Shown: positions 24,974 to 37,792, numbered from the stretch's first letter. The stretch: 64,000 nucleotides of DNA from Candidatus Falkowbacteria bacterium (GCA_963747695.1 CAVVFV010000008.1:139592-203591); one strand, 5' to 3'. Numbers and translations are program-made. Notes: generated from the sequence alone by a model not told the origin.

Positions 24974-25069
24974 CTTATATTTTAATTATTAATACCACCA
25001 GAACGGTGGTTTTTGAATAAAGGTTTTTCGCGCATACGATATACTAAATACCAAATACGAAATACTAAT

Positions 25070-25191
25070 TCGGGGATCGTCCAACGGCCTGCCCAAGGCG
25101 GGCGCGTAGGACAGCAGCCTTTGGAGCTGTTAATCATGGTTCGCCCCAGCCATTCGGCGGGGCGCCAGGGGTTCATCCCCTGGCGAATCCA
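25070..25191 (+). pseudogene. tRNA-Gln-like 5' fragment carrying two GC-hairpin insertions
   Basis: Identical to tRNA-Gln positions 1 to about 58, except for a 19-nt insert in the D loop (25088..25106) and a 42-nt insert in the T loop (25144..25185). Homology stops at aatcca, and the 3' T-stem and acceptor strand are missing. Confidence 0.6.
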
Positions 25192-25204
25192 GACAATTTA
25201 TAAT

Positions 25205-25275
25205 TCGGGGATCGTCCAACGGTAGGACAGCAGCCTTTGGAGCTGTTAATCATGGTTCGAATCCATGTCCCCGAA
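25205..25275 (+). tRNA. tRNA-Gln (anticodon UUG)
   Basis: 71-nt cloverleaf: TCGGGGA/TCCCCGA acceptor, GTCC/GGAC D stem, GCAGC-CTTTGGA-GCTGT anticodon arm, CATGG-TTCGAAT-CCATG T arm. Its 3' end forms the left junction of the island. Confidence 0.85.
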
Positions 25276-26741
25276 CACAGAAAATACTAAGCCCTTTTTC
25301 AGGCAAAATTTTTAACGCTTCGCGAAGCGAAGCGTAAGGTTTGATGGGCACAAATTTAAGTTTTTGATTTATCAAAAACAAGTTCGAGCCGAAGATTTTT
25401 TGGAGATGTGCCTTTTTGGCACATAGATCGTCATTGGTTGCTGTTTTAGCAAGCAATGACGCATCTTTTATCCATTCCCGCATCGGTTCGAGCCAAGTTC
25501 CGGCGTTCTGTTCTAAGCGGGCTATTTGCTCCTCGAGCGACCTCTTTTGCGAGATGACGGCCTTCCGACGGTTTAGGTAGTCTTCCCGCTCGATATCTTG
25601 GGCCAGATAGAGGTCGGTGAGCCGCTCGAGGTTGCGGGATAGGCCTTGTGTCTTCTCCCGCAAGTCCTGGACGAATACCGCCGTTTTCTGCCCTAATTCT
25701 ATCTCTTCCTCATTTGTCCTCCTCGTGAGTTCATTAGCTATATTTTCCGGCATTGAAAATTCAGATAATAGATTTGATAGCTCGGAAACTAAAATCTCTT
25801 CTCTAACATACGATTGAGAACATTTGACTGTTGTTGATTTTTTGGTACAGCGGTAATAGGTATGAGATTTTTGGACTTCAGCGGTAATCATTTTTCCGCA
25901 CTCGCCGCAATGCAATAGACCGCATAAGGGTTTGGGGTCGTTTCCGGTTCTCTGCGGATGACCTCTATCAATCAAAACATTTTGGACTTTATCCCATAAC
26001 CGCTTCTCAATGAGCGGTTTATGCTTGCCCTCATAGATATCGCCGTTATATCTAAATACGCCGTAATAGAAAGGATTGGAGAGAATAAACTTAGCTCTGT
26101 CCTTGTGTAGCGGTTTATCGCCCGCGCTTTTAACACCTTGCTTAAAAAGAAAGTTGGAAATATCCTCGAGGCGATAATTACCTTTGGAGTAGAGCTCAAA
26201 GGCGGCTCGGATGATTTTTGATTTTCTTCGGTCAACGATAATCGTTTTAGCCCGCACGTCGTTTAAGATAGCCTGTCGGAGCTGTGCCGGGAAAGTGTCC
26301 CAGTCGCGCCTTCTGTCTAAGCCCGCGGCTCGTGTTGGAGCTTAGGTCGCGGATGAACTGATTGGCCATACCTAATTCAACGGCCATCAACAGGACGTTA
26401 TCGTTAGGTCGATAGCTTTTGTCCGGCATCAGGATATGTTCAATGATGCTCTGCTGGATCATCCAGCTTATTTGTCCGCCGTCCACCGGATTGCGCGCCA
26501 GACGGTCAAGCTTCCAGCAGACAATCCCCTTGGCTTCGCCCTTGTTAATCCGTTTAAGCATCTCGTTAAAAACCGGTCGGCCCGGAGCTTTGGCCGATTG
26601 TTTTTCTACGAATTCGCGGATTATCTCGATATGTTCGGCCTTGGCCAGTTGGCGCAGTTCGACGAGCTGGGCTTCAATGGACAAAACCTGTTTGTCCTCG
26701 ACATCAGTTGATTTGCGGGCGTAGAGGAAATAGTTTGGCAT
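25250..26741 (-). pseudogene. large serine recombinase, split by a frameshift near 26247..26257
   Basis: The N-terminal resolvase domain (MPNYFLYARKSTDVEDKQVLSIEAQ.., 26741..26247) ends ..PTGYLKRRAG*. The overlapping frame continues (V)RAKTIIVDRRKSKIIRAAFELY.. with the recombinase domain, the zinc ribbon CGECG..YYRC and a coiled coil. The last 26 nt overlap the antisense of tRNA-Gln. Confidence 0.75.
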
Positions 26742-26755
26742 AGTATTTAGCTTAG

Positions 26756-26771
26756 TGGCGTTATAACGCCA
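26756..26771. promoter_or_regulatory. 16-bp perfect palindrome in divergent promoter region (candidate operator)
   Basis: tggcgtta|taacgcca lies between the recombinase start (26741, minus) and the HTH gene start (26817, plus). Confidence 0.4.
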
Positions 26772-26816
26772 TATAGAATAATAATAACACAATTGATAGG
26801 ATATACAATAACAACT

Positions 26817-27020
26817 ATGGATATTTCAAAAAAATTCGGCAAAGCAGTTAGAGCGGCACGCCTTGAAAAAGGAATGTCTCAGGGAGATTTGGCGTTAAAA
26901 TTAAAGGTTGACGCTTCTTATATTAGTAAGATAGAGCGAGGCATACAAAATATGTCACTTGAAGGTGTGGAAAAAATAGCCAAAGCATTGAGTGTGCCAA
27001 TAGTAGAATTAATTAAATGA
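26817..27020 (+). CDS. XRE-family HTH protein resembling R-M controller (C) proteins
   Basis: MDISKKFGKAVRAARLEKGMSQGDLALKLKVDASYISKIERGIQNMSLEGVEKIAKALSVPIVELIK. Its stop overlaps the next start (ATGA). The ORF track starts 8 codons earlier. Confidence 0.8.
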   Translation: MDISKKFGKAVRAARLEKGMSQGDLALKLKVDASYISKIERGIQNMSLEGVEKIAKALSVPIVELIK

Positions 27021-28417
27021 TTATGGACGACGAAAATTTTATAAAAATAAGTCAGCTTACTATTAGTAATTCTTATAATCAGAATTACAAACCATTTATA
27101 AAAACATTAATATTGACCCGCTTACCTTTTTTGAAAAGGAACGAGCTTTTTATGCGCGGGATACAGATAGGGATGCTCGATAGTTTGTCAAAAATGCAGG
27201 ATAACTTAAGAGAATTTAATTCAAAACTATCTTCTTCACTTTCAGCGCTTGAAACGAAAAATCTAGAAAAAAATATTCTTATTCAAAATGAATGGATAAG
27301 AACTATACAAACCATAGCAGACGGGATAGCTTGGCGTAGCTTTAATTTTGATAGACCAATTTTGCGCCACTTATCTGATAATAAATCTCCGGGGCATATA
27401 TCCCAACTTGGACAAGGATTTGATTATCTAGAAACTTTAAAGAAATTTTTAAGAACTTTCAATGGATTCCCGATCGTTAATGATCTAACACGTATTCTTC
27501 GTATCGGAGACTTTACTGTTTTTTATCCTCAAAATAAACAGATGATTTATGAGATAAAAGAAAAAGGAAAAAAGATTTTTAATGTCGGACAGATTTTCTA
27601 CGAGATTAAACGAAGCAAAAAAATACCAAATCCGCAGAAATGGAGGCAACTTACCGCACAGATGTCTATCATAGAAAGAAAGGTTAGGCTCATAACAAAA
27701 AAAGATGGTTCTGTCCAGGATAATTTTGAAGTAGATATTGTGGATTTAAAATTCCCCATAAAAAATCACTTTCGCAAACTAAAAAAACTAATAAGGGTTG
27801 CTGATAGGGAAGGAATAGCCGCTATGACGGTTGAGGATGGGTATTTTATACAAGTTGTTGCCGTGGATAAAATGAAGAATGAGAAAATTGCCCAACATGT
27901 TTCCGCAAAGTTTAAAACAAATTATCCTAAGTGGGTAAAAAACAATCCAAACATTTTTTCTCTAACGAATTATGATAGCTTTTATCAAGAAGGGGGAGAG
28001 TTTACTAGAAATATTATTCCATATTCTGTTTTACCTTTATCAGCACGAAACTGCGTTCGTTTAATGATGGGGCATCTTTGGATAACGGTAATCATTGATA
28101 CGTCTATAATAAAGAAAAAGCTATTAAAACTTAATTGGAAAGTTTCTGAAGGAGAAATTCCCGATCAGCTCCCAGCGGGGGCAACGTTAAAACAAAAAGT
28201 GGATAGTGAAAAATTTTTTGAGATAAAAAAGGACGATGAAAATGGCACATTTACCAGCAATCTGACTATAAGCGAGATAATGATTGCTTTATCGTCATTC
28301 TATAGTTTTGATTTTCTGATAGATTCGTTGGAATTCTCTTATCATGAAGCAAGGCGAACAAAAAGGTCTGGGTATGTAACGAAAAATTATCTCGGTGAAC
28401 AAAAATTGTTAATTTAG
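27017..28417 (+). CDS. hypothetical 466-aa protein, possible PD-(D/E)xK-type nuclease
   Basis: Translationally coupled to the HTH gene. The only motif seen is RIGDFTVFYPQNKQMIYEIKEKG (D-x13-E-x-K). No P-loop, no TM. Confidence 0.6.
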   Translation: MIMDDENFIKISQLTISNSYNQNYKPFIKTLILTRLPFLKRNELFMRGIQIGMLDSLSKMQDNLREFNSKLSSSLSALETKNLEKNILIQNEWIRTIQTIADGIAWRSFNFDRPILRHLSDNKSPGHISQLGQGFDYLETLKKFLRTFNGFPIVNDLTRILRIGDFTVFYPQNKQMIYEIKEKGKKIFNVGQIFYEIKRSKKIPNPQKWRQLTAQMSIIERKVRLITKKDGSVQDNFEVDIVDLKFPIKNHFRKLKKLIRVADREGIAAMTVEDGYFIQVVAVDKMKNEKIAQHVSAKFKTNYPKWVKNNPNIFSLTNYDSFYQEGGEFTRNIIPYSVLPLSARNCVRLMMGHLWITVIIDTSIIKKKLLKLNWKVSEGEIPDQLPAGATLKQKVDSEKFFEIKKDDENGTFTSNLTISEIMIALSSFYSFDFLIDSLEFSYHEARRTKRSGYVTKNYLGEQKLLI

Positions 28418-28430
28418 CAAGTCTAGAAGT

Positions 28431-29001
28431 CATCTCCAAAAAATCTTCGGCTCGAACTTGTTTTTGATAAATCAAAAACTTAAATTTGTGCCCATCAAAC
28501 CTTACGCTTCGCTTCGCGAAGCGTTAAAAATTTTGCCTGAAAAAGGGCTTAGTATTTTCTGTGCTCATCTCTATGACCTCGCTCGAGGATATTTTTTAGA
28601 GAATTCCTGACCCAAAATATAGCCGTCTAACTGCCGCCAGCTAGCGGCCATTTTCCCGTTTTACGCTCAAAGCAAGGGGGCCAACTAGGTGAACAGCTAT
28701 ATGAACAGCTGTATGAACGACTAGTTGAACCCGGGTTCAACTAGCAGACACCGATTTAAGCAGTTATCCTAGCCAAATTCTATTTTCAAAAATGAGTGAC
28801 TATTACTCCGACAACGGAATCAACTGAACGACAAATATATATTATTACTACACTAAGACATTACGACTAAACTACAAATTATAATTACTACTTAAACCAA
28901 TTATACTAAATACAAATATTAATTACAGATATTATTTAATTTCAGATACTACTTTCCAACTACTGGCCAAAACCAAGAAAAAAATGGGGAATGAGGGGAA
29001 A
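28431..29001. repeat. 571-bp inverted-repeat copy (X' + tg core + B') containing an attP-type junction
   Basis: 28431..28561 is the exact reverse complement of 25278..25408. 28564..29001 is the reverse complement of 37089..37526: the outer ~300 bp are identical and the inner ~140 bp carry scattered mismatches and one small indel. Confidence 0.85.
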
Positions 29002-29175
29002 GCCCATCGCCCCGACATAGGTCGGGGCGAGATTGATGGCCCAGGAAACGAAGAGTGTAATAGATACAATCGAACCAGCGACTATTTAAGTAAAAGGCTC
29101 CGACAAAGGGGGTGCCTTTTACTTTGACATTGAAAGAAAATTGTGGTAATATGCGACAATAATAAAGAATAATGT

Positions 29176-30000
29176 ATGGCAAAAAAGATTTTAACATTCT
29201 ATGTTCACCAAATCGTTGTTGAGGGCTTGAATAGTTTTGATTGTTCAACCTTTGGTGCTATAAAAGATTTTGACACCGAAACCCAAGAGATGAAGGAAAT
29301 TGAGGATGGGAAAGACGAAATATTATCCGTAAAAAAGGTGTCAAAAAGTATTCATGAAGACAGATTTGTCGCCATATATTTTAATATTGGTGATAAATAT
29401 CCGTATTCATCAAAGGTTGTTAATGAAAGTCTGTGTGAACAGGATAATCCAAGAGCGCCTGATTTAATCGAATTAGACGAGCAACTTTTTGCATTAGTTG
29501 ATGTTGAAAAGCAACGCCTATGGATATCTAACCAACAAAAAAAGGGTGATATAAGAATTTGGCTAGAAAATAAATTAGGCAAAAAGGTGACTGTAAAATC
29601 TATAATAAAGGACGGAGAATTTATTAACAAGATTAAATCAGTTCGAGAAATTTCCTTTTCTGTTACGCCAAATATATTTAATTCCCCTGGTCAAAATACT
29701 CTTTCAAGTCGCTTGATTGATGATATGTATGGATTTGGTGCCAAAGAAGCAAGATTGTGTTTAAAATATGAAAATTCAAAAATTAGTGATAAAATAAAAC
29801 AGAAGATAAGTGATCTGTTAAAGCGACAAGTTGATTTTAAAGATATTACGGTTATTGGGTATAGTGATGAAAATCTTGAAAGCACGTTTAATATGAATGA
29901 AATAACCAGTAAGATTTTAATTGATTTGCCGGTAGATGAAAAGACAAAGTTGCTAGATTCTGCTGAGGTTTTTGCGAGTTTAATTAGCAAGATTAAATAA
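29176..30000 (+). CDS. hypothetical soluble protein (274 aa), island cargo
   Basis: Clean ORF, Lys/Asp/Glu-rich, no TM and no motif recognised. Followed after 6 nt by a 4-TM protein gene. Confidence 0.6.
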   Translation: MAKKILTFYVHQIVVEGLNSFDCSTFGAIKDFDTETQEMKEIEDGKDEILSVKKVSKSIHEDRFVAIYFNIGDKYPYSSKVVNESLCEQDNPRAPDLIELDEQLFALVDVEKQRLWISNQQKKGDIRIWLENKLGKKVTVKSIIKDGEFINKIKSVREISFSVTPNIFNSPGQNTLSSRLIDDMYGFGAKEARLCLKYENSKISDKIKQKISDLLKRQVDFKDITVIGYSDENLESTFNMNEITSKILIDLPVDEKTKLLDSAEVFASLISKIK

Positions 30001-30006
30001 ACGAGT

Positions 30007-30474
30007 ATGAAGAAAAAAATAATATTTTCATCATTAATTTTCGTTTTAATAATTTTGGTGCAAAGAATTTGTTTATCAGGCGAAAAATTTAATGCATCCG
30101 TCGTTGGCGATGTTATAACGTTTCTCTCGATTACTTTTGGTTTTTATATTACTAGCTTGGCGATCTTTATGACGTCTCAATTTGTTGCCGATTTATACAA
30201 GGTGGTCGATAAGGATGACAATTCCTCAACGCTTTTGCATAAGCTCATGAGTAATTATAAATTTGGGTTAATGCTAACATTAATTTCCTTGATGTATTTC
30301 ATTGCTATTGATTTTTTTGTGAAGCCAGATGTTAATAGTGAAATATCTTTCATGTCTATTCCTGCATATCCAATTCTCGCCTTTTTGATTCTTAATTTTG
30401 CCTTTTGTTTTATTATGTTGGGTGACTTGGTAAATGTTATAATACAGGAGGGTAAAATTCGAACAAAGCAGTAA
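30007..30474 (+). CDS. hypothetical 4-TM membrane protein (155 aa), island cargo
   Basis: Four hydrophobic helices (IIFSSLIFVLIILV, ITFLSITFGFYITSLAIFM, FGLMLTLISLMYFIAIDFF, AYPILAFLILNFAFCFIML). Confidence 0.6.
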   Translation: MKKKIIFSSLIFVLIILVQRICLSGEKFNASVVGDVITFLSITFGFYITSLAIFMTSQFVADLYKVVDKDDNSSTLLHKLMSNYKFGLMLTLISLMYFIAIDFFVKPDVNSEISFMSIPAYPILAFLILNFAFCFIMLGDLVNVIIQEGKIRTKQ

Positions 30475-30502
30475 TGCTGATATTGCATTTATTACGGTTA
30501 TG

Positions 30503-30536
30503 AAAACTCCTTTTTTAAAGAAAGGAGTTTTTTTTA
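30503..30536 (+). terminator. rho-independent terminator
   Basis: aaaactccttt-ttttaaag-aaaggagtttttttt. It separates the 2-gene cassette from the mod operon. Confidence 0.65.
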
Positions 30537-30628
30537 ATCAATAATATTTATAAATAATTATGTAATTTTCGCTTGATTTTTGGTTTTAAAAGTGGTAAAC
30601 TTGAAATTCAATTATAAATATAAAAAAT

Positions 30629-32512
30629 ATGAACTCACTAATTTACGAATTGCCAAAAATAGTTGACGAGGGCAAGAAGGAAGTGGAAAAAATTCTAGAA
30701 AGATTGTCGGGCTCAAATAAATTGGCACTCCAAACCAATGAAATAGTTTTGCCGGCCAAGGATAGCGATAATCTTTGGAGCGGGCAAATGCCGAAGGTCA
30801 ACGAGGGGGAATGGATGAATCGTTTGGTCTATGGCGATAATTTGCTGGTGATGCAGGCGCTTTTGGCTGGCGATTTAGAATCTGGTTTGCCTTCAATGCG
30901 CGGAAAAATTGATTTAATTTATATTGATCCGCCGTTTGACAGTAAGGCGGATTACCGGACTAAGGTGACATTGCCCGGGGCGGACTTGGAACAGAAACCG
31001 ACAGTGATTGAACAATTCGCTTATGCCGATACCTGGAAAGACGGTACCGTTTCTTATCTTAAGATGCTTTATCCGCGGTTGGCTTTAATGAAAGAACTTT
31101 TGTCTGACAAGGGTTCAATTTATGTCCATATTGATTGGCATGTCGGGCATTATGTCAAAATTTTATTGGATGATATTTTTGGGAAAAACAACCTCGTTAA
31201 TGAAATAATATGGAAATATCATGTTGGAACAACTCCACTGAAAGGACTAGGGAAAAAGCATGACAATATTTTGTTTTATAAAAAATCGAATGAATTTAAG
31301 TTTAATTTATGGAGGGAGGCAATACCGGAAGAAAGAATAAAGGATTATAAATACACCGATGAAAATGGAAGAAAGTATAGATTGGGTGGAAATAATGACA
31401 ATACCGTATACTATCTCGACAATGGTAAGGCGGCCACTGACGTATGGACGGATATAAATATTATTAATAAATCGGCAAAGGAAAGGCTTGATTATGGTAC
31501 GCAGAAGCCTCAAAAATTAATCGAAAGAATAATTGAGCAATCGTCTGATAAGAATGATATAGTTGTAGATTTATTCGCTGGTTCTGGCACGACAGCGGCG
31601 GCTGCGGAAAAATTAGGAAGAAGATGGATTGTATCAGATATTGGCAAGCCAGCAAGCTTGGTAATGCGCAAACGCTTAATTGATCAAAATTCAAAACCAT
31701 TTTTATATCAATCTATCGGTGATTATCAAAAAGAGGCCTTGTCTTCTTCTAAACTTTACCGCCGCGTTGGTGATTTAGCGCACGTCGTCCTGCAGCTTTT
31801 TGGCGCTATTCCTTTCCCTGACGATCAAAATCCAAATCGCAATCTCGGCTACATTAAAGAAAGTCGGACCTTGGTAATGGTAGATTCGCCGAATAAGCTG
31901 ACCGGCTTGGCCACGCTTAAAAAAGCACAAGAATATAAAAATTCTTTTCTTGGCGGCTGGAACAAGGTAGTCGTCTTGGGTTGGAATTTTACTTATGATA
32001 TTACCGAGGCTATTCAATTAACTGGCGATGATAAATTGGATGTTTTAGTCATTCCGCCAGACTTGTTGGATAAATTAAAAACTAAAGCGAGCTATCAGGA
32101 TTTGATTAGCAGTGGAAAGATTAGATTTTCTTCCTTGCAATATTTATCTGTTAAGCCAATAACAGTTGAACCGGCTGGCGAACAGGAAAAATTAGTGATT
32201 GAGTTGGATAATTATGTATTGCTTTCCCCGGACAATATCCCTTTGGACGATAAAGACAAAGAGAAGTTAAAAGAAATAATCGCTAAGGATTCACTGGCTT
32301 TAATTGAATATTGGAGCGTTGATCCCGATTATGACGGCATTACTTTTCGGAGTAAGTGGCAGGATTATCGCGAGAACGAAGCCAATGACGGCGATCCATA
32401 TCATGTTGTCACTAAAACGCAATTAACCGTGCCAAAAACGACCAACCGAAAAGTTTGCGTTAAAGCGGTTGATGTCTTTGGCTTTGAAAGCATTGTTATC
32501 GAAAAACTATGA
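30629..32512 (+). CDS. mod: Type III R-M DNA methyltransferase (Mod), beta-class N6/N4 amino-MTase
   Basis: 627 aa. Motif [11 protein letters not shown] precedes motif [21 protein letters not shown], with a central variable region. Located upstream of a Res-type helicase-nuclease. Confidence 0.8.
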
Positions 32513-33000
32513 ACGAAAAAGAAAGAGAAGAATTGTTCGAAAAAGTTAAGAACGAAGCTGAAGTATTTTATAAAAAACTTGAGCCGATTTCTTGTCCGTA
32601 TTTAAGAAAAAAGATTAATTTCAATGCTAAGGGGCTAGATCATATTAAAATGAAAGCCTGGAATAAAACTCGACCGACTTCAGATCAATATTTAAGGTTG
32701 AAATTTTTAAAATTAGTTCCGGCAGTGCTGGCGGCGGCCGGAACCTTGCAAGAGCTTCATGAAAAAAATAATATGGAGAGATTAAAGCTTACCGGCAAGT
32801 GGCAATTTAAAATGGTGCCGGTAAAATATTACGGTTTTGTCGCCATTGTTAATGATGTAAAAATTAAAGTTATCATAAAAGAGATAGAAGCTGTGCCGCC
32901 ATATTTTTGGAGTATAATTCCGTTCTGGAAAACGAAAAACAATGAAATAACCGGGGAAATAAAAAAAGTCTTCCATGAGGGAGACCTTGAGAATGACTAG
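32509..33000 (+). CDS. hypothetical 163-aa protein inserted between mod and res
   Basis: Its start overlaps the mod stop (ATGA). No motif recognised. Confidence 0.55.
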
Positions 33001-33114
33001 AAAACTTTTTTTAGCCTGATACTTGTCTGCGGTTTTATGTATTTAACCGCGGGAGAACTAGGTCCTCACAAATATCATTGTTATTATTATAACACATTTT
33101 TTTTAAAAATCAAT

Positions 33115-36033
33115 ATGCCATCAGCAATTAGCATCGGAACAAGAGATATTCCCTTAAAATTAGCCAATTCCATTACACAGAAAGTTAATGATTCTTGGGT
33201 TAGCGGTGAAATGCTGTCTAAGGTTTCTTTGGTTACTCAAGATCTTCTGAAATACTGGTTTAAAGAGCCGCACACTGAAACGCGATATGTTAATTTTCAT
33301 GAAGGCCAAAGGCAGGCGATTTTGAATGCTATTTATTTGCATGAAGTTTTAGGTGTTAAGAAAGTAAAAGATGTTTACGAAAATATAAATTTTGAGTTAT
33401 TGCCGGAAATTGATATCGCGGAATTAGCCAAAGATAAATACAGCATTCCCAAGTATGCCATTAAGATGGCGACTGGCACCGGTAAAACTTGGGTGATGCA
33501 TGCTTTGGTTATTTGGCAATATTTGAATGCAAAATATGAAATAGAAAAATCTGGCAAATTTACAAAGAATTTTTGTTTAGTCGCGCCAGGAATTATTGTT
33601 TACGAGCGCCTACTGGATGCTTATCTGGGAAAAGAAAACGAAGCGCAAGAAAGACAATTTGAACAATCCGACTTTTTTAAATTTAAAGATTTGTTTATCC
33701 CGCCGCAATACCGCGACGAAGTTTTTGGTTTTATTCAAAACAGTGTAGCGAAAAAACAAGAAATTGGAACCAAGGTGACTGGTGACGGTTTAATTGCTAT
33801 TGCCAATTGGCATTTGTTTATGGGCAAAGAAGAATCAGAAGAAGATAATGATTCGCCTTTGGATAATTCTGATTCGATTGTGAAAGATTTGCTGCCGGTA
33901 AGACCTGGCGTTTCCGGGGGCAACACTTTGGATTCTTTGGACGCTAATTATTTAAGTGGCCGCGAAGTTGACTATTTGGCGGAATTGCCGGATTTAATGG
34001 TGATGAACGATGAGGCGCACCATATCCATGAAAATAAAGTTTACGGCGAAATCAAAGAAGTTGAATGGCAAAAAAGTTTGAATAAAATCGCTGAAGGTAA
34101 AGGCGATAAATTTATCCAAGTTGATTTTTCGGCCACACCTTATGATGTTACAGGTAGTGGACAAAAGCGCCTCAAACATTATTTTCCACATATCATTGTT
34201 GATTTTGATTTGAAAACAGCGATTAGGCGGGGTTTGGTTAAAACAATTGCAATTGATAAACGCAAAGAATTTACTGATCTGGCGCTTGACTATAATGCGG
34301 TAAGGGAGGGGAATAAAGTTATTGGACTGTCGGATGGCCAAAAATTAATGATCAGAGCCGGCTTGAACAAGTTAAAAATTCTTGAAAATAGTTTTATCGA
34401 ATTTACCAAAGATAAGGATGGCGTTTCCAATAAGCATCCCAAGATGCTTATTATGTGCGAGGACAAAAGCGTCTCGCCGTTGGTTGAACAATTTATTAAA
34501 GATGAAGGTTTTTCTGATGATGACGTGCTTCGTGTAGACACCGGTAAGAAAGGTGAAGTTCCGGAAAGCGAATGGTTAACATTGAAGCAAAAACTTTTCA
34601 ATATTGATAAGCATAAAAGTCCAAAAGTTATTGTTTCAGTTTTAATGTTGCGGGAAGGTTTTGATGTTAGCAATATTTGCGTTATTGTGCCGTTGCGTTC
34701 TACGACCGCGCCGATTTTACTGGAACAGACAATTGGCCGCGGCCTTCGTTTGATGTGGCGCGAACCGGAATATGCGGAAATTAAGCAGGATAATATTCAT
34801 CGGTTGCTGGTGGAAAAACGCGAACCAAATAATTATTTAGATTTATTAACCATTATTGAGCATCCGGCCTTTGTTCAATTCTATGATGATTTATTGGCCG
34901 AAGGCTTAATTGGAGAAATTGAAAATGAGTTAGAAGGCAAGGATGTTTTGGGGGATATTTTAAAAGTAGGGTTAAAAGCGAATTACAAAGATTACGATTT
35001 ATTTTGGCCACTAATAATTAAAGAATCCGAAGAAGAATTGGTAAACGGCGAAGTTGGGATAGAAAAATTGGAACCATTTACGATTTATCCATTGGAAGAT
35101 TTGAAAAAGTTTTTTCAAAAAGAAGGAGAATTTTTTGTTTCCGAAGAGCTAACCGTTAAAACGAGATTTGGTGAATACAACGTTGATGCTAATTTATTTC
35201 AATCACAAAGCTACAATGAATATTTGGAGAAGATTTTAAATGTTGTTGTTAATCGGATGGCCAAAGTTGGTGTCCGTAAAACAAAAACTTTTCCAGTGAT
35301 GCAAATTAATAATTTGGAGGTGGTAAAGGTTATTGATAAATATATAAGAACCAAATTGTTTAAAGTGTTTTTTGATCCGTTTGTTGATAATAATTGGAAG
35401 GTACTGTTGCTTAAAAATGGTGTTGTCACTCAACACATCGTTATGGAGATTGCCAAGGTAATTATTGAGATGCAAAAGAATGTTGAAGTGAGCGAAGCTA
35501 AGATTGAAAAAAGATATTTTTCCGAGGTGTCGGAATTGAGAGTTAGAGAAAAATATTCTTTGGAAATTGCAAAAACTATTTATGAGCGTTTGCCGTATCC
35601 CTCAAATAAGGGCGGATTTGAAAAGGCATTGCTGGAATATGCTGATTCCGATGGCAAGGTTGAGGCGATTATGAAAGTAAACGAGTATTATCATAATTTT
35701 GCCAATATCACTTATATCAGAACCGACGGCTTCTTGTCGCTTTATTATCCGGATTTCATAGTGAAAACGGCGGATAAAATTTATTTGATTGAAACGAAAT
35801 CGGATAAAGATTTGAACGATCCAAATGTTAAACAAAAACAATTGGCGACACTTGATTGGATTAAAAGAATTAATCAATTAAGGCTCGAAGATCGGATGGA
35901 TAGGGAGTGGGAATATATATTACTTGGCGAAACGCATTTTTATGGCCTAAAAGATAACAATGCTTCAATTGACGAAATTTGCCGACTGGCAAAGGTAAAC
36001 GAGGCCCAAGCTGCAGGCAAACTTTTTGTTTAA
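33115..36033 (+). CDS. res: Type III restriction enzyme Res subunit (SF2 helicase plus C-terminal PD-(D/E)xK nuclease)
   Basis: Helicase motif I MATGTGKTW and motif II MNDEAHHI, then ..QTIGRGLR. C-terminal nuclease motif YYPDFIVKTADKIYLIETKSDKD. The start is ambiguous (33037 or 33115). Confidence 0.8.
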   Translation: MPSAISIGTRDIPLKLANSITQKVNDSWVSGEMLSKVSLVTQDLLKYWFKEPHTETRYVNFHEGQRQAILNAIYLHEVLGVKKVKDVYENINFELLPEIDIAELAKDKYSIPKYAIKMATGTGKTWVMHALVIWQYLNAKYEIEKSGKFTKNFCLVAPGIIVYERLLDAYLGKENEAQERQFEQSDFFKFKDLFIPPQYRDEVFGFIQNSVAKKQEIGTKVTGDGLIAIANWHLFMGKEESEEDNDSPLDNSDSIVKDLLPVRPGVSGGNTLDSLDANYLSGREVDYLAELPDLMVMNDEAHHIHENKVYGEIKEVEWQKSLNKIAEGKGDKFIQVDFSATPYDVTGSGQKRLKHYFPHIIVDFDLKTAIRRGLVKTIAIDKRKEFTDLALDYNAVREGNKVIGLSDGQKLMIRAGLNKLKILENSFIEFTKDKDGVSNKHPKMLIMCEDKSVSPLVEQFIKDEGFSDDDVLRVDTGKKGEVPESEWLTLKQKLFNIDKHKSPKVIVSVLMLREGFDVSNICVIVPLRSTTAPILLEQTIGRGLRLMWREPEYAEIKQDNIHRLLVEKREPNNYLDLLTIIEHPAFVQFYDDLLAEGLIGEIENELEGKDVLGDILKVGLKANYKDYDLFWPLIIKESEEELVNGEVGIEKLEPFTIYPLEDLKKFFQKEGEFFVSEELTVKTRFGEYNVDANLFQSQSYNEYLEKILNVVVNRMAKVGVRKTKTFPVMQINNLEVVKVIDKYIRTKLFKVFFDPFVDNNWKVLLLKNGVVTQHIVMEIAKVIIEMQKNVEVSEAKIEKRYFSEVSELRVREKYSLEIAKTIYERLPYPSNKGGFEKALLEYADSDGKVEAIMKVNEYYHNFANITYIRTDGFLSLYYPDFIVKTADKIYLIETKSDKDLNDPNVKQKQLATLDWIKRINQLRLEDRMDREWEYILLGETHFYGLKDNNASIDEICRLAKVNEAQAAGKLFV

Positions 36034-36096
36034 CGACTAATGGCTCATATCCCTAATTACGGGAGATAAAATGTCACGGGTTTTAGTAACCAATAT

Positions 36097-36891
36097 TTGA
36101 ATTTTAAAATTATGAAATTCATAGAAGAGATTTCCCCCGAAGTTTATAGAATAAAGAGATTACAAAATTTATTATCTAGAAGTTTAGACAATGATGCTGA
36201 TTTAATAGTCAGCGCTATATTATCAGAAATCAGAAAAATTTTAGAGGACAACAAAGGAGAGAGCTGTAAAAAGTATAAATATTTATCATTGTTCTGCGAC
36301 TGGGTGCTTCATAACAAGTTGGACCTACCTAAAAATGACGCACGTGAAAATATAATTAAAAAAGTTCACAATATACTTTTGCGGCATAACAGCATACAAA
36401 GGATGATTAAGCCTATAGAAGTGGAACTTTTCTATAATTTACGGAGAGATTTAAGAATTTTTCTAAAGAATCACAACCTATCAAGGAATTTAGTAAGAAC
36501 AAATGCGCGCTGGAAAATGTTTCTTGATGGATTAATTCTTGTAATCAGCTTTTCTCCATTGATTATTAACGAGGGCAATAAGAAAAAATTAAAAAAAATA
36601 CATGTTTTCAAGTATATCAAGGGGGACAAACAAACGCTAACAGTTAAGGCTATGACTTTGATAATACGACCCCCACACGTGCATAAGGCTAAGGGTGGAA
36701 AAAAATATTTAAATCCTGCCGAAGCTAATTGGATAATTGACTATAATGAACCCATAGACTTGGGTAAAGAAAAATTTTATCTTCCCACATCTATTCCTTT
36801 AATATACTATAGTCTTGGGAGGGATAATGCAGGATCGGAGTTAAACAAGGGGGTTTTAAATTTTTGGAGTGATTTTAAAATAGACGAATAA
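36097..36891 (+). CDS. hypothetical 264-aa protein, island cargo
   Basis: TTG start in the ORF track, with an in-frame ATG 5 codons in. Basic, Lys/Asn/Leu-rich, no motif. Confidence 0.5.
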   Translation: MNFKIMKFIEEISPEVYRIKRLQNLLSRSLDNDADLIVSAILSEIRKILEDNKGESCKKYKYLSLFCDWVLHNKLDLPKNDARENIIKKVHNILLRHNSIQRMIKPIEVELFYNLRRDLRIFLKNHNLSRNLVRTNARWKMFLDGLILVISFSPLIINEGNKKKLKKIHVFKYIKGDKQTLTVKAMTLIIRPPHVHKAKGGKKYLNPAEANWIIDYNEPIDLGKEKFYLPTSIPLIYYSLGRDNAGSELNKGVLNFWSDFKIDE

Positions 36892-37088
36892 TATAAAATT
36901 ATGGAAACAATTGGGAATAGGATTCGGCAATCGTTTGGTTTTAAGAAGAGGTCGTTTTTGAGGGTCGTGAATTTAGGGTTGAAGAGAAGTTATGAATAAA
37001 GTAGATTGTATCACTCACGTCATCAATCTTTCCATTAGCCCATTAATAGCCTCGTCACCGTTTTGCCCGTCCCGTTTTCACCCCGTCT

Positions 37089-37528
37089 TTTTCCCCTCAT
37101 TCCCCATTTTTTTCTTGGTTTTGGCCAGTAGCTGGAAAGTAGTATTTGAAATTGAATAAATCTGTAATTAATATTGGTAGTTAGTATAATTGGTTTAAGT
37201 AGTAATTGTAATTTGTAGTTTAGTCGTAGTGTCTTAGTGTAGTAATAATATATATTTGTCGTTCAGTTGATTCCGTTGTCGGAGTAATAGTCACTCATTT
37301 TTGAAAATAGAATTTGGCTAGGATAACTGCTTAAATCGGTGTCTGCTAGTTGAACCCGGGTTCAACTAGTCGTTCATACAGCTGTTCATATAGCTGTTCA
37401 CCTAGTTGGCCCCCTTGCTTTGAGCGTAAAACGGGAAAATGGCCGCTAGCTGGCGGCAGTTAGACGGCTATATTTTGGGTCAGGAATTCTCTAAAAAATA
37501 TCCTCGAGCGAGGTCATAGAGATGAGCA
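37089..37528. repeat. inverted-repeat arm B (right end of island)
   Basis: Reverse complement of 28562..29001. Ends ..gaggtcatagagatgagca at the B|Y junction. Confidence 0.85.
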
Positions 37529-37792
37529 TGTGAAATAAAATCGGCCTTCTTGGCCAATTTTATTTCACCATTTTGGGAAATGGATGAGAAGTTTATACCC
37601 CGGAGCCCCGCTTGCTTGCAAGCGGAATCAGGCGAAGGGGTAAATCCATGTCCCCGAACATGTGAAATAAAATCGGCCTTCTTGGCCAATTTTATTTCAC
37701 CATTTTGGGAAATGGATGAGAAGTTTATACCCCGGAGCCCCGCTTGCTTGCAAGCGGAATCAGGCGAAGGGGTAAATCCATGTCCCCGAACA
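37529..37792 (+). repeat. 2 x 132-bp perfect tandem repeat, each unit ending in the last 18 nt of tRNA-Gln
   Basis: Units 37529..37660 and 37661..37792 appear identical. Each ends aatccatgtccccgaaca and contains the hairpins gtgaaataaaatcggcc/ggccaattttatttcac and ccgcttgc/gcaagcgg. Confidence 0.9.

Follow-up and report, generated by a model that had tools for sequence, protein, structure and literature searches.

Genome engineering makes major use of serine integrases, whose natural sites usually lie inside protein genes. The described large serine recombinases (LSRs), such as those of phiC31, Bxb1, A118/LI, SPbeta (SprA), TnpX and CcrAB, consist of Resolvase and Recombinase domains and a zinc ribbon into which a coiled coil is inserted, and they act on short att sites that have only the central dinucleotide in common and in which a motif lies nearer the centre in attB. 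An attP located within the integrase gene itself is found in SSV1-type archaeal integrases and in IntP of myxophage Mx8, where the integrase is altered or split when the element enters a tRNA gene; these enzymes are tyrosine recombinases with long identity blocks and no inverted spare gene end. Mycobacteriophage BPs and its relatives show integration-dependent immunity, in which attP lies in the repressor gene and the effect on the protein of exchanging its C-terminus upon integration was demonstrated experimentally (PMC4557955). The integrase of BPs is also a tyrosine recombinase. The yeast 2-micron plasmid and chloroplast-type genomes form flip-flop isomers; in both, a pair of long inverted repeats, maintained as identical copies, divides the molecule into two unique segments. 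Finally, the serine-recombinase genes hin, gin and pin are located within or beside a segment that has inverted repeats at its ends; they encode small invertases that use sites of roughly 26 bp, an enhancer and Fis, and that control neighbouring genes.

The mobile elements of the ultra-small CPR bacteria are poorly known. Here we describe an island in a 64,000-nt stretch of Candidatus Falkowbacteria bacterium DNA, which as a whole is referred to as the window (Table 1). The island LSR has the same domains as the phiC31-type enzymes, and its att sites are likewise short with a common central dinucleotide. Unlike those enzymes, the family to which it belongs is largely confined to CPR bacteria, is targeted to the 3' boundaries of many tRNA genes, apparently via the T-loop, and has its attP inside the integrase ORF together with a second, inverted attP with long identical flanks. 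It differs from the SSV1 and Mx8 systems in being a serine recombinase, and from BPs in that the gene interrupted is the integrase itself; the C-terminus is swapped here as well, with an effect on protein behaviour that we infer. In contrast to Hin, Gin and Pin, the inverted repeats concern integration of the element and not the control of its neighbours.

Table 1. Positions of the island features and their flanks, counted from the first nucleotide of the window.
Feature	Position	Strand	Basis or remark
tRNA-Gln(ttg), integration target	25205..25276	+	ARAGORN; Rfam RF00005, 64.7 bits
LSR gene	25250..26741	-	Pfam, translations, 94%-identical intact relative P0001
attL core dinucleotide CA, at T/X	25276..25277	+	common to T/X, B/X and B/Y
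Mobile island (12.25 kb)	25278..37528		directly 3' of tRNA-Gln
X, last 131 nt of conserved LSR coding sequence, P' arm of attP	25278..25408	-	repeat search
Xre/C-protein-type HTH gene, 75 aa	26793..27020	+	PADLOC, NCBIfam; divergent from LSR
466-aa ORF, variable gene of integrase (R) module	27017..28417	+	identical sequence in L100 and L101
X', orphan inverted copy of LSR 3' end	28431..28561	+	repeat search; tail comparison
Core TG (CA on the other strand) of internal inverted attP-type site	28562..28563	+	
B', internal B-arm copy	28564..29001	+	first 45 nt encode native LSR tail AHLYDLARGYFLENS and stop
Cargo (C) module	29176..36891	+	Pfam, PADLOC, NCBIfam; GC
Type III Mod methyltransferase (cargo)	30629..32512		Pfam, PADLOC, NCBIfam
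Type III-like Res helicase-nuclease (cargo)	33037..36033		Pfam, PADLOC, NCBIfam
Other cargo ORFs (274, 155, 163 and 264 aa)	within 29176..36891		
B, distal B-arm copy, orientation opposite to B'	37089..37526	+	repeat search, alignment
attR core dinucleotide CA, at B/Y	37527..37528	+	sequence; core comparison
Host flank: Y (114 nt, terminator-like hairpin), T' (18 nt), second Y, T''	37529..37792	+	repeat search; sequence

In the following, T stands for the 3' end of tRNA-Gln and a slash marks a junction. The T/X and B/Y junctions lie at 25277/25278 and 37528/37529, and the dinucleotide CA is the sole sequence common to the three island junctions (T/X, B/Y and the inverted B/X). There is a single match to the 36-nt B/X string (28545-28580, minus strand), and the 18-nt T string is present exactly three times, at 25260, 37643 and 37775, with none of either expected in shuffled sequences. 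The four junctions listed in a preliminary description of this DNA (T/X, B/Y, T/Y and inverted B/X) are all present and are no chance matches, and its proposal that they are att sites of a serine integrase with a 2-bp crossover is borne out by the tails, the short junction cores and the motif shift of relatives described below. The assignment of T/Y as attB stands only as far as the string itself: an 18-nt copy of T is indeed followed by Y (37643-37660/37661), but it is a fortuitous partial copy that reads ggggtaAATCC vs ggttcgAATCC in the tRNA, and it is only a partial attB because the T-loop TCGAA motif is absent. It exists because the 132-nt unit of Y and T' is tandemly duplicated (37524-37787), which created the two partial attB-like strings T'/Y and T''/Z, T'' being the third T copy at 37775-37792. 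An empty tRNA-Gln/Y site, proposed earlier as a check, was sought in metagenomes with the tRNA-Gln 3' end; the scan returned five contigs, all from other species, and so yielded no unoccupied site of the host of this island.

We conclude with high confidence that the island is an integrated, LSR-driven mobile element with attP = B-CA-X and attB = T-CA-Y, and that recombination of attP with attB gave attL (T/X) and attR (B/Y). The tRNA-Gln gene was left intact since the crossover CA is the discriminator base plus the next base. The island could also be read as a composite, either a tyrosine-integrase island bounded by the 18-nt repeats T...T' or a transposon with 440-bp terminal inverted repeats (B'...B) lying beside an LSR gene. 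T' and T'' do run from inside the T-loop to the tRNA 3' end, an extent typical of the scars of T-loop-targeting tyrosine integrases, and the cargo does lie between two long inverted repeats, B' and B, whose ends are TG...CA. However, the direct repeat of the tRNA 3' segment does not bound the island, which ends at B/Y (37528), whereas the nearest T copy starts at 37643 and T' thus lies 114 nt beyond the end; no tyrosine recombinase, Phage_integrase match or transposase was found in the island with Pfam, PADLOC and NCBIfam; B extends the LSR reading frame with a family-conserved tail; and in seven elements the core dinucleotide at the end of the distal B is that of the other two junctions. A composite origin is therefore very improbable. 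An Rfam scan of the island detected nothing besides the tRNA, an upstream tRNA-like duplicate giving no match, and a consensus scan for promoters and terminators found 53 promoter-like sites vs 40 +/- 7 expected in shuffles, which is no clear excess.

The LSR of the window matches Resolvase (PF00239, E = 4.9e-22), Recombinase (PF07508, 2.1e-13) and Zn_ribbon_recom (PF13408, 2.8e-09), and contains the motifs YARKST and KLDRLAR, as required for the nucleophilic serine and the DRLxR pocket of the catalytic domain; their residues are invariant in the family alignment. In its integrated form the protein ends in SIFC-VRGHGFEP, the final eight codons and the stop being read from the antisense strand of tRNA-Gln, while the native tail at the inverted B/X copy reads SIFC-AHLYDLARGYFLENS with its stop at 28608-28610. 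Both reading frames and both tails are as previously described, and we are confident that integration replaced the last 15 residues of the integrase with residues from the antisense tRNA, the crossover lying 15 codons upstream of the native stop. An attP inside the integrase gene is the rule for this whole LSR family and not an oddity of this window. The AlphaFold (AF2) model of a 78% relative (P0002) predicts long helices at residues 332-379 and 385-412, in keeping with the coiled coil of the zinc ribbon, and the crossover falls in the last predicted helix (484-502; block-mean pLDDT 74-89), so that the native tail is predicted to be structured. In the window a single additional A near 26255 disrupts the LSR frame; L100, a contig from another strain, carries different indels within the same 50 nt, and the gene is intact in relatives such as P0001 and L102. 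This may reflect decay, in which case the LSR of the window would be dead, or a consensus error in an assembly prone to them. No recombination directionality factor was identified. A scan of viral contigs with the LSR profile revealed no close relative, the best match being 33% identical; the element is no recognised phage.

When the ends of the island are joined, the 571-nt unit X+CA+B is present twice in inverted orientation between two unique segments, as had been claimed. In the window it appears as two inverted repeats, one of 136 nt between 25273-25408 and 28431-28566 (99% identity) and the other between 28553-29001 and 37090-37537 (98% and 96%, with one 1-nt indel). X and its internal copy are identical at 133/133 positions, and the two copies of the unit are identical over 133 nt of X + 2 + the first 297 nt of B, a zone centred on the crossover. 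The copies differ only further in, at positions 298-396 and beyond, and therefore represent two sequences and not a single one assembled twice. B' also contains four TGAAC repeats with 12-nt spacing, a palindrome (28721-28744) and an AT-rich stretch. It had been suggested as an alternative that the layout is a metagenome-assembly artefact; repeats would then have been mis-joined and a circular-form junction placed inside the integrated copy. The repeats are certainly hard for assemblers, since X, X' or B is where many contigs of relatives end, and because of them CPR assemblies often break at these loci. Yet besides the defined differences between the copies, the same order is seen in the independent contig L100 and the architecture recurs in 62 of 83 related loci from various studies and assembly programs; among them are the complete chromosome OY970382.1 as well as contigs whose names are of long-read style. 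We rejected the artefact as scarcely credible. The excised circle would, with high confidence, carry two inverted attP sites. A folded single-strand attP like that of CTX phage was dismissed on logic, as an LSR cutting a hairpin-stem attP would break the chromosome.

The two segments of the circle correspond to two modules, an assignment made with high confidence: an integrase (R) module of LSR, HTH gene and one variable gene, and a cargo (C) module, here a type III restriction-modification system. The pairing of LSR and HTH genes is kept in at least 36 related loci by tblastn, and the 466-aa ORF gave no match in Pfam, PADLOC or NCBIfam. The cargo is ordered as the 274- and 155-aa ORFs, Mod, the 163-aa ORF, Res and the 264-aa ORF, with a GC content of 33-38% vs about 46-48% in the flanks. 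The element is best read as an integrative defence island that has two attP sites in inverted orientation. The likeness to the 2-micron plasmid, put forward in the preliminary description, holds for the two inverted repeats and two segments, and both orientations also occur among members of the CPR family; it is only formal otherwise, as Pfam, PADLOC and NCBIfam revealed no replication protein in the element of the window and no replication or amplification role is evident. Moreover, the repeats of the island hold the integration site and not a dedicated inversion site, and inversion by the element's own recombinase is unexpected for an LSR.

More than 6000 LSR homologues were detected, and every taxon name except one among the top 120 is a CPR group; we are highly confident that the family is large and found almost only in CPR/Patescibacteria genomes. 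The comparative set comprised 83 related loci, almost all from CPR bacteria, with 65 complete LSR genes. In 59 of the 65 the LSR ends in antisense tRNA: 48 ORFs run into an antisense tRNA called by ARAGORN (11 isoacceptor types) and 11 have tRNA-like tails. Only two of the 65 have the native tail. The tRNA-derived tails range from 8 to about 90 aa, and most fused ORFs are intact. In about 45 relatives the LSR copy turns to antisense tRNA at the tRNA 3' end, and at the same switch point the inverted internal copy continues in frame to a conserved tail, x-LY-xx-ARTYF. Such an inverted copy of the LSR 3' end was found in 62/83 loci, being in frame into the conserved tail in 41 of them, and was absent in five loci with >9 kb of upstream sequence (L002, L007, L067, L069 and L082). 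The order T/X-R-X'/B'-C-B/Y is repeated in six further complete elements (L016, L022, L023, L036, L046 and L051), in which the distal B matches at 40/40 nt; the junction core, exactly CA in the window, is 2-5 nt in five of these six and 8 nt in L023. A literature search in full text found no description of the family or the layout, with subscription journals largely outside its reach, and the layout, common to dozens of related CPR elements, is apparently undescribed.

A further feature of att sites was seen when the arms were compared. In 41 loci the first base of TCGAA is nt 14 of the tRNA arm and that of TCGAAC is nt 18 of the B arm, a constant shift of +4. For LI integrase the motif bound by the zinc-ribbon domain is shifted by 5 bp between attP and attB and is nearer the centre in attB (PMC3783163). 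The +4 shift is close to this published value and is what would be expected of attP vs attB. The universal T-loop sequence probably serves in recognition of the tRNA arm. No TCGAAC was found in the X arm, which has its own conserved pattern, or in seven Y arms, so that only the B/T arm pair is comparable.

Single clusters at 90% protein identity mix native-tail, tRNA-Gln-fused and tRNA-Asn-like-fused members, which would indicate recent mobility and indirectly support recombination of attP with attB. Two loci, L090 and L091, start with the sense 3' end of tRNA-Asn followed by the orphan X', and their LSR frame enters B, beyond which the cargo follows; in these elements, inserted at tRNA-Asn, the integrase module is reversed. 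Flipping of the element, or its use of either attP, as suggested earlier, thus has support from a relative. L100, an independent contig from a 99.45%-identical strain, reproduces the R-X'/B'-C adjacency, and its internal B' carries exactly the five variants of the distal B of the window, which shows a patch exchange between the repeat copies in the window lineage and, together with the zone of perfect identity around the crossover, indicates that the copies recombine. Exact-protein look-ups with ORF466 and the 274-aa gene returned only contigs in the window order or cut at the repeats (L100, L101 and L103), with no flipped or circular form of the window's element among them; the 264-aa cargo gene gave no record. 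Separately, the arrangements in L056 and L061 look as though the internal site had recombined at the exact crossover with a second tRNA-type site.

Taken as a whole, we hold it rather probable that the element is an LSR island with an in-gene attP whose spare inverted attP is kept for module inversion or for integration through either site. As to why the spare copy is kept, we propose with moderate to low confidence that it makes the integrase module invertible, letting the gene recover its native end, or allows integration through either site. Inversion would follow one of two routes, homologous recombination between the identical X copies or excision and re-integration through the other attP; since recombination of attP with attL or with another attP is not known for canonical LSRs, inversion would be RecA-dependent or proceed via the circle. 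In the common "locked" state the LSR would be fused to the tRNA and oppose tRNA transcription, and in the rare "unlocked", excision-competent state it would read into the internal B arm and regain its native terminal helix and 3' end. A switch role is suggested by the asymmetry of the two states, which are far from equimolar (59 fused vs 2 native). The fused LSR may nevertheless be fully functional with no switch needed, since most fused ORFs are intact.

The same data bear on a simpler proposal, that the spare site is a plain second functional attP through which either copy integrates, the tail and orientation having no regulatory meaning. The copies are identical over any plausible 50-bp att site, the state of L090/L091 is that expected of integration through the orphan copy, and the L056 and L061 arrangements fit as well. 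It predicts about equal isomers, however, which disagrees with the tail counts above and with the database, where about 8 native-tail forms were seen among the top 120 proteins, nearly all on short contigs; and it leaves unexplained why identity reaches 110 nt into X and 150-440 nt into B. We consider it rather unlikely. More improbable still is that the internal copy has no function and is left over from an inverted duplication or a double integration long ago, kept like the LSR 3' end only by gene conversion. More than 20 loci have an old 8-11-nt insertion and a frame disruption in the proximal orphan copy, which implies that the duplication is ancient and that only the distal 110 nt are homogenised, and some family members lack the copy; but it is kept across LSRs only 50-66% identical, in strongly streamlined genomes, and the part always kept (crossover, in-frame native tail and B arm) is a complete attP and no random fragment.

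A bolder version of the inversion and either-site account we favour is possible though doubtful: the internal inverted attP would be live and work with an integrase-inversion switch, a complete attP and a spare 3' end being kept while the element is integrated. If so, a module flip would restore the native enzyme from one truncated by integration and opposed by the tRNA, acting as a lock and unlock of mobility. The resident attP could also join any second tRNA-type attB and capture tRNA-bearing circular DNA, either as new cargo or as trapped DNA of invading phages or plasmids; chromosome segments could invert too, as the arrangements in L056 and L061 suggest. A logic of this kind for control and cargo acquisition would be new among serine integrases.

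The family appears to read the universal T-loop and acceptor stem of tRNA genes, and would offer related enzymes with predictable targets at no fewer than 11 tRNA types (at least 11), close relatives being found at both tRNA-Gln and tRNA-Asn-like sites. The location of attP in the last helix of the integrase, together with the conserved spare attP, suggests that integration state is coupled to integrase structure and expression, in a way for which we found no description. The elements carry restriction-modification and other defence genes and seem to act as a main vehicle for gene flow in CPR bacteria. Some relatives (L093 and P0013) encode Replic_Relax, and in a 74% relative (L002/L003) that has no inverted copy of the LSR end, an inverted repeat of 191-199 nt surrounds restriction-modification cargo.

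When the window was read at the ends of the island, all the junctions listed in the preliminary description were borne out. They are collected in the table below, where T is the tRNA-Gln 3' end, X the arm formed by the 3' end of the large serine recombinase (LSR) gene, B the other att arm of the element and Y the host flank.

Features of the tRNA-Gln island and its junctions (window coordinates)
Feature	Position	Strand or orientation	Evidence
tRNA-Gln(ttg), intact	25205..25276		ARAGORN + Rfam
T/X junction, ...ccccgaaCA/cagaaaatac	25277/25278		sequence
B/Y junction, ...gagatgagCA/tgtgaaat	37528/37529		sequence
B/X junction, core TG	28562-28563	inverted	sequence
tRNA-end copy of 18 nt, then Y	37660/37661		sequence
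LSR gene (Resolvase + Recombinase + Zn_ribbon_recom domains)	25250..26741	minus	
Xre/C-protein-type HTH gene, 75 aa		divergent from LSR	
ORF466, 466 aa, downstream of HTH gene, without family match			
Cargo, in order after the internal repeat: two ORFs without assigned function, type III Mod methyltransferase, 163-aa ORF, 998-aa Res-like helicase-nuclease, 264-aa ORF			

The 36-nt B/X string has a single occurrence and the 18-nt T string has three, and neither is found in shuffled sequence. A repeat search returned the inverted repeats 25273-25408 versus 28431-28566 (136 nt, 99%) and 28553-29001 versus 37090-37537 (98% and 96%). Counted from the crossover, the window copies are identical across the whole 133 nt of X and 297 nt into B, and the crossover lies at the centre of the perfect-identity zone; differences between the B copies are confined to positions 298-396 and beyond, away from the crossover. 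Three of the four att-type junctions proposed earlier keep that status, namely T/X (attL), B/Y (attR) and the inverted B/X (attP). The reading of T/Y as attB needs correcting: this junction is present only because a 132-nt unit, consisting of 114 nt of Y and an 18-nt partial T copy (T'), is tandemly duplicated and followed by a third T copy at 37775 (region 37524-37792), and T' is not a full attB because it lacks the TCGAA motif of the T-loop. The first 39 nt of Y form a terminator-like hairpin. The T fragments of this region begin within the T-loop, and such a T-loop-to-3'-end extent is typical of scars from T-loop-targeting tyrosine integrases; a partial tRNA-Gln copy resembling them is found at the related locus L098. 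Just upstream of the tRNA-Gln gene, at 25066-25200, a tRNA-Gln-like duplicate contains 22-nt and 38-nt segments 100% identical to the tRNA, is broken by 18-nt and ~42-nt insertions, lacks the 3' acceptor strand and is not called by ARAGORN or Rfam.

The repaired window LSR has more than 6000 database homologues, and among the top 120 all taxon names given but one are CPR/Patescibacteria groups. The homologue C-termini fall into two classes: the majority are of the G[FLI]EP type, which is the antisense of the tRNA T-loop, and the minority (x-LY-xx-ARTYF-x(3-6), then stop) carry the tail that the B arm of the window encodes, hereafter the native tail. Loci from species-representative genomes (80) plus others were analyzed by script, and results are given for 83 non-redundant loci. 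The LSR ORF is complete in 65 of these; 48 complete ORFs continue into the antisense strand of a tRNA called by ARAGORN (Thr 11, Gln 10, Leu 10, Asn 3, Ile 3, Tyr 3, Val 2, Glu 2, Arg 2, Gly 1, Ser 1), 11 have a tRNA-like tail without a tRNA call, two have the native tail and four are unclear. Tails that look tRNA-derived where ARAGORN calls no tRNA can be explained by a group I intron in the tRNA. At L024 (11530-11755) the tRNA entered by the LSR gene holds such an intron (Rfam RF00028, 62 bits), and L013 is probably similar; this agrees with the group I introns reported in Patescibacteria tRNA genes (PMC13011429).

Of the 83 loci, 62 carry the final 110-170 nt of the LSR gene a second time, as an inverted copy 0.1-9 kb upstream of the LSR. 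In the 41 of these that are readable beyond the end of LSR identity, the copy runs in frame into the native tail, and at the same nucleotide the LSR copy changes to tRNA antisense. Where enough sequence is available (L016, L022, L023, L036, L046, L051), the B arm recurs a third time, as an exact copy (40/40 nt), at the distal element end, and the three junctions of these elements have only 2-5 nt in common (8 nt in L023). Given this recurrence, the order T/X-R-X'/B'-C-B/Y, with X' and B' the internal inverted copies, R the integrase module and C the cargo module, is the standard layout of the whole family and not peculiar to the window. It is found in the complete chromosome OY970382.1 and in contigs whose names are of long-read style, and the R-X'/B'-C order is reproduced in L100, an independent 5.5-kb contig 99.45% identical to the window. 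An assembly artefact, the alternative raised in the preliminary description, is thereby excluded. We concluded with high confidence that the region is an LSR-driven integrative island at a tRNA 3' boundary, whose attP lies within the integrase gene and which has a second, complete attP in inverted orientation.

Next, we compared the att arms, measuring both from the same boundary. In 41 loci, TCGAA starts at nt 14 of the tRNA arm, where it is the antisense T-loop, and TCGAAC at nt 18 of the B arm (16 and 20 in the window), a constant shift of +4. In the LI integrase the zinc-ribbon-domain motif lies ~5 bp nearer the centre in attB than in attP (Rutherford et al., PMC3783163), and the shift matches this rule for one arm pair. 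This suggests that the LSR family anchors its zinc ribbon on the universal T-loop and takes its specificity from the acceptor/T stem. The crossover falls at the discriminator base or inside an encoded CCA, and integration therefore leaves the tRNA undamaged. The X arm has a conserved pattern of its own without TCGAAC, and no common motif emerged when the host-side Y arms were compared. At its inner end the X repeat falls on invariant G-S-N codons (28449-28455 and 25384-25390 in the window; 71 related loci), with the DNA sequence GGCTCGAACCT, which is the same motif as in the T-loop antisense and the B arm. The Ser codon at this position is TCG in 75% of loci, versus 18% among Ser codons overall in these genes, and Ser-to-Leu changes retain T.GAACC; lying ~112 nt from the crossover, the motif may act as an accessory binding site. 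The B arm also contains (28690-28744 and 37346-37400) an array of four TGAAC repeats spaced 12 nt apart. The array ends in the perfect palindrome ctagttgaacccgggttcaactag, and next to it comes an AT-rich stretch with 'attac' repeats. It is kept in the 87%-identical element L102 (1640-1720), and its possible roles are those of an operator, an iteron array or an accessory site.

Single 90%-identity clusters of LSR proteins contain native-tail, tRNA-Gln-fused and tRNA-Asn-like-fused members together; the cluster nearest the window LSR includes P0122 with the native tail AHLYDLARRYFLDNS, P0001 with a tRNA-Gln tail and P0124 with a tRNA-Asn-like tail. Such mixing indicates that movement is recent and that enzymes of one type are not limited to a single tRNA. 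LSRs more than 90% identical are fused to tRNA-Gln or tRNA-Asn-like sequence depending on the contig (clusters of P0001, P0009, P0015 and P0065), thus target choice is not strictly one tRNA per enzyme. Two loci from two samples (L090, L091) start with the 3'-terminal 50 nt of a sense-oriented tRNA-Asn, fused to the orphan copy X', and continue with an ATPase gene, the HTH gene, an LSR reading into X/B with the native tail, and then cargo; this is an integrated element with its integrase module in the opposite orientation. Two inverted tRNA-type junctions lie on either side of the LSR at L056 (9650-11650), and a 21-nt tRNA 3' fragment is joined to the orphan copy at the exact crossover at L061 (7870-8063). 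Both arrangements look like the products expected if the internal attP recombined with another site of tRNA type. The internal B' of L100 has exactly the bases of the window's distal B at 28861, 28882, 28910, 28914 and 28931, a patch exchange via gene conversion or two inversions in succession. The orphan copies of more than 20 loci carry an old 8-11-nt insertion beside the GSN codons and LSR identity is found only distal to it, indicating that the duplication is ancient and the distal 110 nt are continually homogenized.

Excision by attL x attR would release a circle bearing two inverted attP sites. Integration via the LSR-proximal site would lead to the common state, with the integrase fused to antisense tRNA and opposing tRNA transcription; the native integrase would be retained after orphan-site integration or homologous inversion between the X copies. 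In the AlphaFold model (mean pLDDT 80.8) of P0002, a native-tail protein with 78% identity, a coiled coil is followed by a C-terminal module ending in helix 484-502 (block-mean pLDDT 74-89). The crossover maps to about residue 488/489; what integration replaces is therefore the greater part of a predicted, structured helix and not a flexible tail. Since the fused state far exceeds the native one (59 versus 2 of 65 complete ORFs), the fused form might be a stable, 'locked' form and the native-tail form transient. We put forward this switch role tentatively and think it somewhat doubtful. Against it, most fused LSR genes are intact, their tails vary freely, and attL x attP inversion is not expected from canonical LSRs themselves.

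By its sequence and sites the window enzyme belongs with the large serine integrases, although the window copy is frameshifted. A tyrosine-integrase tRNA island was ruled out, as no tyrosine integrase gene is present and no direct repeat bounds the region. SSV1 and Mx8 also place attP within int, and integration-dependent immunity in BPs follows the same logic of a C-terminal swap upon integration, but the chemistry differs in each. The 2-micron-like layout described earlier holds for geometry and for nothing beyond it. Full-text literature searches returned no account of this LSR family, its tRNA targeting or the spare inverted attP, and a study of horizontal gene transfer in Patescibacteria reports restriction-modification islands with recombinases and tRNAs unmentioned.

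The LSR frame in the window is disrupted by a single extra A near 26255, and L100 has other indels within the same 50 nt (delT 26222, delAG 26266-67; window 26220-26270); these reflect either genuine decay at a hotspot or errors of the consensus, perhaps linked to methylation. GC content is 33-38% across 27000-37100 (32-38% for ORF466 and the cargo) versus ~46% in the flanks and the LSR gene itself, and by this measure the integrase and the remaining island seem to have different histories. The best promoter-like site of the island (TTGACA-17-TAATAT with an upstream TG, 29124-29152) lies just outside B', ahead of the first cargo gene. At L008 (5966-9473) a homologous type III Mod/Res pair is located between X' and the LSR, i.e., in the integrase module, whereas the pair in the window is in the cargo module; the gene content of the modules is therefore interchangeable. 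In some relatives a Replic_Relax (PF13814) protein adjoins or is fused to the LSR (L093 2137-3000; P0013), a hint that some members of the family pass through a plasmid-like stage.
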